Below the pieces are notes generated by a model that saw nothing but the letters and a program-made list of their open reading frames with translations, was not told the origin of the DNA and made no database searches. A program made the translations under genes and the position numbers. From positions 665 through 64,664 of the forward strand of contig JAPUDV010000078.1 of the NCBI GenBank assembly GCA_027492875.1: 64,000 bases of DNA. The letters run 5' to 3'. Position 1 is the first letter of the stretch. The number at the start of each line of letters is the position of its first letter. This DNA comes from Candidatus Competibacteraceae bacterium (lineage in GTDB: Bacteria > Pseudomonadota > Gammaproteobacteria > Competibacterales > Competibacteraceae). Positions 3,209 through 15,666 of the stretch are shown one piece after another.

Positions 3209-5635
3209 TCATTCGACCGACACTCCGAACCCGGAATTTTCCAACTGGCTGGGCGTAATGATGGGGACGGAGCTTTCATAGGTTCGCCGCACCCGCCCGG
3301 CAATCCGCGCCGACAAATCCGCCGAACTGGACCCGCTGTTGCGCACCACGAAACTCAACGTCACGCCCGTGGTTCGATAAACTTGCATCGCGCCGTTTAA
3401 CAGCGTTTGCCGGGTCACCGTTCGCCCGACGTAGCCGTTCAATACCCGCATGACCTCGGAATGATCCGCGCCGCTCAACCAGCCGTCCACGCGCACCGAA
3501 CCGATCTGCCACACCCCGGCCCGTGACGATGGCGCGGACGGCGCGGACGGCGCGGACGGCGGTGCGGCCGATGCCGTTCTCTCCAGCGCGACGGGCAAGG
3601 TGACGTCGCCATCGACGATCCGCGCCGCTACCTGCCGGGTTTCATAGCCCGACCGGGAAACTTCCACCGTGTAGCTGCCCGGCGGCAATTGAATGCCGGA
3701 GCGATAGGTGAACGAGGAATCGACCAGTCGCACTCGGGCGTTCGGAGGCGTGGGGCGCACGATCAACCGGTAGCGGGTTAGTTCGGGCTGCTTGACCAGC
3801 GCCACCGGCACCGTCACGTCGCTGTCGGCGATCCGCACCGCCACCTGCCGGGTTTCATAACCCGACCGGGAAACTTCCACCGTGTAGCTGCCCGGCGGCA
3901 ACCGTACTCCAGGGCGGTAAACGGTGCGGGTGCCTCGCAACCGCACTTGAGCATCGGGTGGATCGGCGCGCACCGTCAGTTGATACTCACTGGGTTCGGG
4001 TCGCTTGACCAGCGCCACCGGCACTGTCACGTCGCTGTCGGCGATTCGCACGGTGATTTGCTGGGTTTCGTAGTCGGGCTGGGAGACTTCGACCGTATAG
4101 CTGCCCGGCGCCAGTTGAATGCCGGGTCGATAGGACGACCGGATACCTTTCAGCCGGATTCGGGCGCTGGCCGGATCGGCGCGCACCGTCAGCCGGTACA
4201 GCGCCGGCCGTTCCGGTTCGGGCTGTTTGGCGAGGGAGACCGGCACCGTCACGTCGCTGTCGACGATCCGCACCGCCACCTGCCGGGTTTCGTAACCCGA
4301 CTGGCCGACCTCCACCGTGTAGCTGCCCGGCGCCAGTTGAATGCCGGGTTGGTAAACCGGCCGGATGCCGAGCAGCCGGATCTGGGCATTGGCCGGATCG
4401 GGGCGCACCGTCAGCCGATACAGCATCGGACGCTCCGGCTCGGGCTGCTTGGCGAGGGAGATCGGCACCGTCACGTCGCCATCGACGATCCGCACCGCCA
4501 CCTGCTGGGTTTCGTAACCCGACTGGCTGACCTCCACCGTGTAGCTGCCCGGTTTCAGTTCCACCCCAGGCCGATACTCGGTCCTTTCGTTCAACAGCCG
4601 TACCTTGGCTTGCGAGGGATCGGCCTGCACGGTTAAACGGTACTGGGCCGGTCGCGCCGGCTCCTGCTTGATCAGCGCCACCGGCACGGTCACTTCGCTG
4701 TCGACGATCCGTACCGGAAACATGTGGGTGGCGTAGCCATCCCGCGCCACCTCAACCTGATAGTCGCCGGGGAGCAGTTGCACGCCAGGTTGATAGGCGG
4801 TCGGGCTGTTCAGCAACCGGATTCGCGCGTCCGCCGGCTCCGAACGAACGGTCAAGCCGTATTTGGCTTTTTCCAGCGCGATATTGAGCATCACATCGCG
4901 GTCCGCGATCCGCACTGCTTCCTTGCGGGTCGCGTAGCCCGGTTGCATCACCTCGATCTCGTAGTTTCCAGACGGCAGCCGGATTCCGGGCTGATACGGG
5001 ATCTGACTGCTCAGCAGGCGGACGCTGGCGCCGGGCGGGTCGGTCTTGACCGTCAGGGCATAGGTCGGCGCCACCGGCGGCGGCGCCGTGATCATCGCCG
5101 CCAGTTCGTTGACCTTGATCTGAATGGTGTCGATGTCCTTGCCCTGGATCTGGCCGCTGCGCAGCAGGGAAGCGGTTTTGGTGTCGATCAGGCGCGCGGT
5201 AACGGTGATCAGGTCCCCCAGTTTGTACACACCGCCGGTCACCACGGCGTCCACCCCGTACAGCCGGCCCAGTTCGGCGGCGGTCTTGGGATCGAGCAGG
5301 CCGGTGGAGCCGAATTCCTGCGCCTTGGCGATCTTGGCCGCCGCCGACAGCGGCAAGCGGTCTTTCAAGGTGAAGCGGCCGGTGTTGGCGATGGCCGACA
5401 TCATCAGATCGGCGATGATGGCCCCGGCCTGTTCGTTCAGACCGCCGCGCACCGCGAATTCAATCACCGTCGCCGTCATCCGCTCGGGCGGTCTGTCCGC
5501 CGCCCGCGCCGACCCCGATGGCCAGGCAGCCAGCGCCAAAACCAGCGCCAGCATCAGCTTCAAGAGCCCGAGAATGGTTCTGTCCACATCTTTTCCTCCG
5601 CCGCCGGTCAAGCAACCGATCATCATGCCCGTCAT
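3209..5635 (-). CDS. Exported protein: CsgG/TolB-N-like domain, 7 PEGA repeats, POTRA-like C-terminus
   Basis: ATGA overlap with the kinase stop (5632-5635); hydrophobic signal LLKLMLALVLALAAWP; ...AAELGRLYGVDAVVTGGVYKLGDLITVTARLID domain; seven YxLTVxxDP...YxPG..L.PGxYxVEV...GY repeats. Confidence 0.85.
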   Translation of the reverse strand: MTGMMIGCLTGGGGKDVDRTILGLLKLMLALVLALAAWPSGSARAADRPPERMTATVIEFAVRGGLNEQAGAIIADLMMSAIANTGRFTLKDRLPLSAAAKIAKAQEFGSTGLLDPKTAAELGRLYGVDAVVTGGVYKLGDLITVTARLIDTKTASLLRSGQIQGKDIDTIQIKVNELAAMITAPPPVAPTYALTVKTDPPGASVRLLSSQIPYQPGIRLPSGNYEIEVMQPGYATRKEAVRIADRDVMLNIALEKAKYGLTVRSEPADARIRLLNSPTAYQPGVQLLPGDYQVEVARDGYATHMFPVRIVDSEVTVPVALIKQEPARPAQYRLTVQADPSQAKVRLLNERTEYRPGVELKPGSYTVEVSQSGYETQQVAVRIVDGDVTVPISLAKQPEPERPMLYRLTVRPDPANAQIRLLGIRPVYQPGIQLAPGSYTVEVGQSGYETRQVAVRIVDSDVTVPVSLAKQPEPERPALYRLTVRADPASARIRLKGIRSSYRPGIQLAPGSYTVEVSQPDYETQQITVRIADSDVTVPVALVKRPEPSEYQLTVRADPPDAQVRLRGTRTVYRPGVRLPPGSYTVEVSRSGYETRQVAVRIADSDVTVPVALVKQPELTRYRLIVRPTPPNARVRLVDSSFTYRSGIQLPPGSYTVEVSRSGYETRQVAARIVDGDVTLPVALERTASAAPPSAPSAPSAPSSRAGVWQIGSVRVDGWLSGADHSEVMRVLNGYVGRTVTRQTLLNGAMQVYRTTGVTLSFVVRNSGSSSADLSARIAGRVRRTYESSVPIITPSQLENSGFGVSVE
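3585..5065 (-). repeat. Seven tandem intragenic PEGA-domain repeats (~205-225 bp units)
   Basis: Recurrent DNA blocks such as CCACCGTGTAGCTGCCCGG and GCACCGTCACGTCGC; central units nearly identical. Confidence 0.9.
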
Positions 5636-15297: not shown

Positions 15298-15666
15298 TTG
15301 AAGATCCGGCATATCTTGTTTCTGTTCCTGGCCCTGTCGGCGATTGCCTTCATGCAGCCGCTCGTCTCCCTTCTGGGCGCGCTAACCCTGCTAATGGGCG
15401 TGGGGGCTTTGATTTATCGGGATCTATCACCGGCCGCGCAGAACGCCGTGGAGCGCCAGGTGCTCGGCTGGTTGCGCCGGATCCGCGCCGGCCCAGCGGC
15501 GGAAAACAGCTCATCGCCGTTCTCCCTCCGGCGGTTGTCGGCTGCTTTGCCCGAGGCCAGCCTACCCGCCGAACGGGTCCGCCGCACTCGAACCAGGGCC
15601 TCCGGCCCGGCGACCGCCTCGCCGCCACGGGCATCCGATCCGACCGATGGCCCACCGGCGGTTTGA
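15298..15666 (+). CDS. Hypothetical membrane protein with Ser/Thr/Pro/Arg-rich tail
   Basis: TTG start 23 bp after the PP2C stop; two hydrophobic N-terminal segments then a low-complexity tail. Confidence 0.6.
   Translation: MKIRHILFLFLALSAIAFMQPLVSLLGALTLLMGVGALIYRDLSPAAQNAVERQVLGWLRRIRAGPAAENSSSPFSLRRLSAALPEASLPAERVRRTRTRASGPATASPPRASDPTDGPPAV

Follow-up and report, generated by a model that had tools for sequence, protein, structure and literature searches.

A Competibacteraceae gene cluster in which an MCE module with a degenerate MlaF-like ATPase lies between pseudokinase and kinase receptor genes

Introduction

MCE systems are usually seen as ATP-driven or tunnel-type lipid transporters. 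A gene cluster in the 64,000-nucleotide (nt) stretch of contig JAPUDV010000078.1 analyzed here (the window) raises a question about this picture: in a conserved clade in which a catalysis-less MlaF is kept under selection together with a TPR lipoprotein of its own, what does the MlaE/MlaF scaffold do without hydrolysis? The cluster (3209–15666) consists of seven minus-strand genes in one orientation (G1–G7) and two divergent plus-strand genes (G8 and G9). G1 encodes a pseudokinase followed by a transmembrane (TM) segment and an FGE-like domain; G2 to G5 encode an MlaE-like permease, a degenerate MlaF-like nucleotide-binding protein, an MlaD/MCE protein, and a TPR lipoprotein; G6 encodes a kinase-TM-FGE protein; and G7 encodes a protein with CsgG-like, PEGA, and POTRA-like parts. 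The divergent pair comprises a PP2C phosphatase and a small membrane protein. An earlier note on this DNA had read these genes as one trans-envelope phosphorelay analogous to the threonine phosphorylation pathway of Pseudomonas; a check of open reading frames (ORFs) and Pfam domains recovered all nine genes and every domain that it had named, each in its place, although the starts of G4, G7, and G8 had to be slightly corrected.

The G+C content of the window is ~64%, and the host is a Candidatus Competibacter-type gammaproteobacterium, its MlaD-like G4 being 85–88% identical to proteins of Competibacter genome bins and 57–70% identical to those of other Competibacteraceae. Members of this family are abundant glycogen-accumulating organisms of wastewater, so envelope or aggregation signaling in them is of applied interest too.

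We tentatively favor, at somewhat short of an even chance, an explanation in which the locus would be a Competibacteraceae-specific composite of two separately evolving units that are functionally coupled. Unit A is an independent four-gene MCE module (MlaE, degenerate MlaF, MlaD-like protein, and TPR lipoprotein). Unit B is a Hanks-type phospho-signaling set that comprises the kinase G6, the pseudokinase G1, the protein G7, which is translationally coupled to the kinase, and the PP2C phosphatase with its small membrane partner. More secure than any reading of the locus as a signaling device is the proposal that the stand-alone module represents an undescribed MCE clade working without ATP hydrolysis.

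An MCE module that occurs on its own

The module was traced with G4 in a profile search of 1.8 billion representative proteins, and locus collections were scanned with an alignment of eight MlaD sequences, which replaced one of 23 distant MlaD relatives that had proved too divergent for a locus scan. All G4 orthologues fall into one cluster at 50% identity, after which the scores drop from 669 to 172 bits and a small set of relatives follows. The block MlaE–degenerate MlaF–MlaD–TPR, its gene order and the 8-nt overlap of MlaE and MlaF unchanged, is present in five Magnetococcales genomes (L031–L035), on a Magnetococcales-like metagenome contig (L073), and in other lineages (L052 and L054), and part of the block is found in L004–L007, L036 (Dechloromonas), and L051. 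Since the genes flanking it differ from lineage to lineage, the four-gene block is a conserved unit. In L004–L006 (8637–11455), the trio of degenerate MlaF, MlaD, and TPR genes is preceded only by a 65-amino-acid ORF, and because no MlaE homologue was detected, the module may lack a permease there.

The earlier note had described the MlaF-like ATPase as degenerate, and alignment of G3 to FtsE and to its orthologues bears this out for all five catalytic motifs. The Walker A motif reads GSGRR, with Arg in place of Lys; the Q-loop Gln is replaced by Glu; the signature LSGGQ has become LSPLE; the Asp-Glu pair of Walker B is Ser-Ala; and the H-loop His is absent. In G3, a conserved LPQET insertion takes the place of Walker B. 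Every Competibacteraceae orthologue shares this fivefold degeneration with the window, and Magnetococcales and the other lineages have lost four of the five motifs. Wherever the module occurs, the Q-loop, the signature motif, and the H-loop have gone, along with the Glu of Walker B; only in Competibacteraceae have the Lys of Walker A and the Asp of Walker B been lost as well. Outside this family, the Walker A Lys is kept (GSGKT/S), the Q-loop Gln is replaced by Glu, Asp, or Ala, L(T/S)xE(Q/E) stands in place of LSGGQ, Walker B reads Asp-Asn or Asp-Gly, and the H-loop His is absent; to judge from these motifs, such proteins may still bind nucleotide and should not hydrolyze it. G3 itself is, by the same reasoning, a dead ATPase, predicted to be incapable of ATP hydrolysis. 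Because it is nevertheless kept at 68–88% identity within Competibacteraceae, it would retain some role, which is most likely structural or regulatory.

The remaining members of the module bear recognizable relationships to Mla and Mce proteins. G2 covers positions 2–211 of the 212 in the PF02405 profile, and the NCBIfam MlaE models match it under their cut-off; NCBIfam and PADLOC scans of the cluster proteins as a whole returned generic matches only, every one under its cut-off. G4 consists of an N-terminal TM helix, one MCE domain, and ~190 amino acids of long C-terminal helices. In profile comparisons it matches MlaD in the TM and MCE part and the structures of mycobacterial Mce1B/C across the helical region, and its AlphaFold2 (AF2) model, which is of low confidence (predicted local distance difference test score, pLDDT, 53) and was used for secondary structure only, shows the MCE barrel followed by ~190 residues in long helices. 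In this predicted layout, G4 resembles needle-forming Mce proteins. The lipobox of G5 is LAAC, and the residue at position +2 is Gly; by the E. coli Lol rule, a non-Asp residue at this position points to outer-membrane sorting, which suggests that G5 is carried to the outer membrane. Its homologues come after MlaD in every lineage bearing the module. No MlaB (STAS), MlaC, or MlaA gene is present in the cluster or its flanks.

With an ATPase that is dead clade-wide, Unit A would not be an ATP-driven pump. It would more likely be a passive or structurally regulated bridge, leading from an inner-membrane MlaE/MCE complex to the outer-membrane TPR lipoprotein, and such a bridge could serve as a lipid conduit or as a tether.

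The kinase, the pseudokinase, and their FGE-like domains

G6 keeps the motifs GxGxxG (as GAGGFG), AVK, HRDLKPAN, DFG, and SPIE and is, on the strength of this intact catalytic set, an active-type Hanks kinase; its kinase domain is 84–97% identical across the family. The pseudokinase assignment that the earlier note had given to G1 holds as well. G1 is without the Gly-rich loop, its HRD motif reads HQH, the catalytic-loop Lys is replaced by Asp, the catalytic Asn is lost, and DFG has become GFG; among the Hanks kinase catalytic residues checked, only the VAIK Lys is kept. Since these losses are conserved in eight orthologues, G1 is regarded as a selected pseudokinase.

Both proteins end in an FGE-like domain. 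In G6, this domain follows the kinase domain and one TM segment, and in G1, the pseudokinase domain and one TM segment are followed by a periplasmic linker of ~250 amino acids, helical and with Cys motifs, before the FGE-like domain is reached. Because each of these domains follows a single TM segment, they are periplasmic. Alignment with human FGE leaves G6 without Cys at either active-site position (human Cys336 and Cys341), and the corresponding region is free of Cys in G1 and in all orthologues; with the catalytic cysteine pair absent, a role of the domains as enzymes was ruled out. They presumably bind a ligand or a protein. The possibility that they are variable proteins of a diversity-generating retroelement (DGR) was also rejected: the window has no template/variable repeat, and orthologues of G1 and G6 have conserved, not hypervariable, FGE C-termini. 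A reverse transcriptase is likewise absent from the window.

Two further features of G1 were noted. Its linker (window 12400–13000, residues ~440–640) holds two copies of the motif F/W..A.r.nT..aY..YL.rC...C.....A...L, which has no Pfam match and also precedes the CsgG-like module in the short periplasmic protein P0361. The N-terminus of G1 (RLEELAEAYAAGRLDEAELARRQEALL) looks like a SHOCT-type short helical motif and has no Pfam match either.

In a search with G6, 7028 of 8000 candidates scored at E <= 1e-30, the best after the orthologues being Competibacteraceae paralogues of 850–913 amino acids. Two kinase-FGE paralogues of this family sit in two-gene units of PP2C and kinase-FGE, with no MCE or PEGA gene nearby. 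The kinase-FGE family is expanded in Competibacteraceae, and its minimal unit is PP2C plus kinase-FGE.

The PEGA/POTRA protein and its shared module

Read from 5635, G7 begins with a cleavable signal peptide of the Ala-x-Ala type, has no lipobox, and carries seven PEGA repeats of ~72 amino acids. The POTRA-like end that the earlier note had seen in this protein is supported by modeling: the AF2 model of the C-terminal 100 amino acids (pLDDT 79) has the order beta-alpha-alpha-beta-beta, and all 50 of the 50 best PDB matches are POTRA domains, so that a POTRA fold is the supported prediction. Template-modeling scores to single POTRAs reach 0.64 with E-values of 0.025 or worse, and for the local matches the root-mean-square deviation is mostly 2.2–3.9 Å over ~78 residues; no Pfam sequence match to this C-terminus was found. 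G7 homologues number 45 matches, all from Competibacteraceae or unlabeled metagenome assemblies.

The PEGA copy number varies among G7 orthologues, from a protein of 385 amino acids (~2 repeats, L055) to one of 929 (L002), and this variation could reflect repeat-number evolution or assembly collapse. In the window, the array is encoded by DNA tandem repeats of ~213–222 nt (3567–4877), six copies of which were detected. The orthologue in L001 is called as two pieces (643 and 303 amino acids).

The CsgG match of G7 is partial, covering profile positions 33–101 of 210 (E 5e-6), and together with the missing lipobox this rules out G7 as a CsgG outer-membrane channel; the CsgG-like module is a small soluble alpha/beta domain that is also found in other periplasmic proteins. 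The module, ~150 amino acids long (window 5000–5480), recurs at 73–90% identity in P0363 and P0365 (secreted caspases, Peptidase_C14), in P0366, a kinase-TM protein in which it replaces the FGE domain, and in P0361; the P0363, P0365, and P0366 fusions come from short metagenomic contigs. The module may be a shared homotypic adaptor or association module.

Such sharing raises an explanation in which the kinase side would be part of a periplasmic network for surveillance or conflict, expanded in this lineage and made up of kinases, caspases, and FGE-fold binders (some perhaps DGR-diversified) that are linked by the CsgG-like adaptor. The FGE domains would then detect envelope ligands of foreign origin or from the cell itself, with the MCE module either incidental or a target. 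Besides the close identity of the module in caspase-fused, kinase-TM-fused, and short periplasmic proteins, this explanation draws on the very large size of the kinase-FGE family, on a second vWA-PP2C-kinase-like triad in the window, and on a Competibacteraceae locus with kinase genes, a separate FGE-fold protein, and a gene for the DGR accessory protein bAvd. However, neither a DGR repeat pair nor a reverse transcriptase occurs in the window, the FGE C-termini are conserved, no specific PADLOC defense model is matched, and the caspase and kinase fusions are known from short contigs; we regard the network, and the incidental or target role that it would leave to the MCE module, as improbable.

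One coupled locus or two neighbors

All nine genes are present in every Competibacteraceae-type locus that is long enough (~40 loci, duplicates included, in which MlaD identity falls as low as 57%), and the fused nine-gene arrangement was found in Competibacteraceae only. The association of MCE and TPR genes with kinase-FGE and PP2C genes, for which the earlier note had suggested a neighborhood search, is thus conserved within this family; elsewhere the module stands alone. The note had also named a lack of co-conservation in other genomes, together with separate transcription, as a finding that would speak against a single system, and outside Competibacteraceae the MCE-TPR block and the kinase genes are indeed not co-conserved.

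The minus-strand genes of the window are, as had been described, mostly overlapping or closely spaced. G2 and G3 overlap by 8 nt, G3 and G4 by 8 nt, given the corrected G4 start at M12 (9764), and G6 and G7 by 4 nt; the most likely true start of G7, at 5635, forms an ATGA overlap with the G6 stop. The gaps measure 27 nt between G1 and G2, 38 nt between G4 and G5, and 102 nt between G5 and G6. In the orthologous loci, the G1–G2 gap is 3–44 nt where readable and the G5–G6 gap 81–156 nt, and the remaining junctions overlap or are <50 nt. Shuffled sequence yields terminator-like sites at least as often as the region does, and the listed sites all lie outside the gaps between cluster genes; the promoter scan was uninformative, with counts at chance level. 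The G5–G6 gap and the orthologous gaps contain blocks conserved across the family, ttcgga.cg.tcgcgcggc ... ccgataccacgatAGGAtgccATG, upstream of the G6 ribosome-binding site.

Several observations argue for functional coupling of the units. All components recur together in the ~40 Competibacteraceae-type loci, G1–G7 share one strand with short gaps free of the listed terminator-like sites, and the G6 and G7 genes overlap. Unit A also lies exactly between the two receptor genes, with G1 only the short distance given above upstream of MlaE, and the added decay of the ATPase is confined to the lineage in which the module sits between kinases. If the units are coupled, the bridge formed by Unit A would share an operon with a pair of receptors, kinase and pseudokinase, that may monitor or regulate it. 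The FGE-like domains, perhaps together with the PEGA/POTRA stalk, would sense what state the MCE/TPR bridge or the surrounding envelope is in; G6 would autophosphorylate and then phosphorylate cytoplasmic targets, among which the dead ATPase G3 is one candidate; and the PP2C phosphatase would reset the system. Information could flow either way, from the bridge to the kinase or from the kinase to the bridge. A more specific version, which we consider unlikely, would have an ATP-independent MCE hexamer and needle, docked to the outer-membrane TPR lipoprotein, act as a mechanical or lipid-state sensor for a kinase/pseudokinase heterodimer, which would make contact via its FGE domains and the PEGA/POTRA stalk, with the dead ATPase as a phospho-regulated switch.

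Several points weigh against the coupled composite. Units A and B never occur together outside Competibacteraceae: in ~12 distinct loci of other lineages, with available flanks of up to 10 kb per side, no kinase, FGE, PEGA, or PP2C gene was found. Within the family, the malic-enzyme gene, and usually the PGI gene too, flank the cluster across loci, and because these housekeeping flanks are equally syntenic, the conserved adjacency may be plain vertical inheritance. The adjacency could also be fortuitous, because the large kinase-FGE family occurs in other contexts. The conserved blocks of the G5–G6 gap could be an internal promoter or an element of translational or regulatory control. Furthermore, an active MlaF from another part of the genome might conceivably pair with G3, and because the G4 model has a pLDDT of 53, it is secondary structure and homology from which a periplasm-spanning needle is argued.

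Much of this would be expected of two unrelated neighbors, an MCE/TPR module that handles envelope lipids or tethering by itself and a separate set of sensory genes, which were interleaved once in an ancestor of Competibacteraceae and kept by vertical inheritance. In addition to the kinase-free loci of other lineages, the syntenic flanks, and the possibly promoter-bearing gap, the PP2C and kinase-FGE units that stand alone elsewhere accord with this explanation. It has less to say about the exact position of the module between two paralogous receptor genes with so short a G1–G2 gap, or about the further ATPase decay in this lineage only. Moreover, none of the ~40 loci shows the units apart, although the upstream flank differs in two of them (L027 and L028), where the units are still together. 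We hold unrelated neighbors to be a real possibility, though less probable than the coupled composite, and by our estimate half or more of the probability that coupling leaves belongs to independent neighbors.

Gene coordinates and neighboring features

The coordinates of the cluster genes and of further features of the window are collected in Table 1. The true start of G8 is probably near 14189.

Table 1. Features of the nine-gene cluster and of neighboring regions of the window
Feature	Position	Strand	Remarks
G1, pseudokinase-TM-FGE	11318–14017	-	899 aa; Pfam weak Pkinase (E 1e-7) and FGE-sulfatase (E 3e-54)
G2, MlaE-like permease	10487–11290	-	267 aa; PF02405 (E 7e-29)
G3, MlaF-like ABC nucleotide-binding domain, five catalytic motifs degenerate	9757–10494	-	245 aa; ABC_tran (E 5e-13)
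G4, MlaD/MCE protein	8649–9764 (ORF as first listed, 8649–9797)	-	371 aa from M12; PF02470 (E 1e-13) and Mce4_CUP1
G5, TPR lipoprotein	7687–8610	-	307 aa; TPR_12 (E 1e-21); lipobox LAAC
G5–G6 intergenic gap, widest in the cluster	7585–7686	-	conserved sequence 5' of the G6 ribosome-binding site
G6, Hanks-type Ser/Thr kinase-TM-FGE	5632–7584	-	650 aa; Pkinase (E 3e-38) and FGE-sulfatase (E 5e-51)
G7, CsgG-like/PEGA/POTRA protein	3209–5635 (ORF as first listed, 3209–5788)	-	808 aa; partial CsgG match and PEGA
G8, PP2C phosphatase, divergent from G1	14114–15274	+	Pfam PP2C/SpoIIE; metal-binding motifs DGMGGH, GDSR, SDGLW, DDN
G9, small hydrophobic membrane protein	15298–15666	+	no Pfam family match; co-conserved downstream of PP2C
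vWA protein	22184–22879	+	second signaling set
PP2C_2 phosphatase	22876–23841	+	second signaling set; overlaps vWA gene
680-aa ORF	within 22184–25825	+	second signaling set; weak kinase-domain match (E 1e-5), under Pfam cut-off
NarH-like	35279–36874		nitrate reductase block
NarG-like	36834–40688		nitrate reductase block
Fused double MFS transporter	42389–45079		nitrate reductase block
NarX-like PilJ/HAMP/GAF histidine kinase	45391–47271		nitrate reductase block

A second phospho-signaling set lies 6.5 kb from the cluster (22184–25825, plus strand), and the same vWA-PP2C pair is found at the edge of L001. Triads of vWA, PP2C, and kinase genes have reportedly been described in the comparative-genomics literature, and the set in the window resembles them. 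In another Competibacteraceae sequence (L056, CP065007.1, 8100–16876), genes for an alpha-2-macroglobulin, a kinase, a 197-amino-acid protein, the CsgG-like P0361, a transposase, a second kinase, a separate FGE-sulfatase protein, bAvd, and a PIN protein follow one another in this order, so that an FGE-fold protein adjoins a DGR component and kinases.

The respiratory nitrate reductase block of the window spans 35279–47271. A 75-nt repeat within it (40913–40987 and 42661–42735, 76% identical) suggests a second paralogous MFS gene at ~40710–42326. Further along (49641–54282), the genes for a Pat-like protein with CoA-binding, ATP-grasp, and GNAT acetyltransferase domains (898 amino acids, minus strand) and for an AMP-forming acyl-CoA synthetase (612 amino acids, plus strand) are divergently oriented, the classic pairing of an acetyltransferase with the synthetase that it regulates.

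Comparison with known systems

Among the closest known systems is the TagQRST-PpkA-PppA-Fha1 pathway of the H1 type VI secretion system (T6SS) of P. aeruginosa. Its parts are of the same types as those of the cluster: a lipoprotein of the envelope, a periplasmic element with the FGE fold, two ABC-like inner-membrane proteins, a membrane-bound Hanks kinase, and a PP2C phosphatase. We take COG1262 to be the SUMF1/FGE-domain COG, and TagT is reportedly an active ATPase. In this pathway, TagR belongs to COG1262, TagS (COG4591) and TagT (COG1136) make up an ABC pair of the Lol type, TagQ is a lipoprotein of the outer membrane, and a kinase and a PP2C phosphatase come in addition (PMC13584744). By contrast, the FGE-sulfatase domains of the cluster are fused to G1 and G6 and not provided by a free TagR, its ABC pair is of the Mla type and has a dead ATPase, it includes a pseudokinase and a PEGA/POTRA protein besides, and other bacteria carry its ABC/lipoprotein part as a module of its own.

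The analogy drawn in the earlier note thus stands for the types of parts and fails for the Lol-type pair with a working ATPase, the FHA substrate, and the T6SS genes. No FHA or T6SS family is represented among the window ORFs scanned, in agreement with what had been said of the window, or in the 10-kb flanks of related loci. A Tag-like threonine phosphorylation pathway whose output would be a T6SS or an FHA protein encoded elsewhere in the genome could account for the matching parts. It is set against these negative scans, the fusion of the FGE domains to the kinases, the Mla-type pair with its dead ATPase, and the existence of the ABC/lipoprotein part without a kinase in other lineages, and we consider it very improbable. 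If the coupled composite is true, the cluster would be a second case, after TagQRST-PpkA, of an ABC-like complex and a lipoprotein that feed a Hanks kinase across the envelope, and the common but uncharacterized kinase-FGE receptors would gain a concrete ligand or partner to test.

The architecture of a kinase, a C-terminal TM segment, and an FGE-sulfatase domain has been cataloged as the family "Proteo1", to which no function is assigned (bioRxiv 10.1101/2025.01.12.632604). G6, and G1 in architecture, share this layout; however, G1 is a conserved pseudokinase, and the G1/G6 pair brackets an MCE operon.

On the side of the MCE module, the comparators are Mce1 of mycobacteria, which forms a needle, and the bridge-type MlaEFD of Veillonella (PMC10665443; PMC9882608). 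Like Mla (MlaFEDB), Unit A comprises a permease of the MlaE family, a nucleotide-binding ABC subunit, and an MCE protein anchored by a TM segment, in the operon order E-F-D, and G4 shares with the Mce1 subunits a long helical C-terminal extension. Unlike in Mla and other MCE systems, the nucleotide-binding subunit is catalytically degenerate clade-wide, and unlike in Mla, the cluster is without MlaB, MlaC, and MlaA and a dedicated TPR lipoprotein always follows MlaD. Literature searches returned no paper on a dead-ATPase MlaE-MlaF-MlaD-TPR variant and nothing on a system of MCE, TPR, and kinase proteins.

A further parallel is provided by PqiABC, in which the helical-needle MCE protein PqiB is accompanied by a dedicated outer-membrane lipoprotein, PqiC, encoded just downstream, and no working ATPase is present. 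PqiB has three MCE domains, its partner is PqiA instead of MlaE/MlaF, and PqiC is not a TPR protein. Unit A is thus like PqiABC in combining a putative MCE needle with a downstream lipoprotein and no working ATPase, and differs from it in its single MCE domain, its MlaE/MlaF pair, and the TPR build of its lipoprotein.

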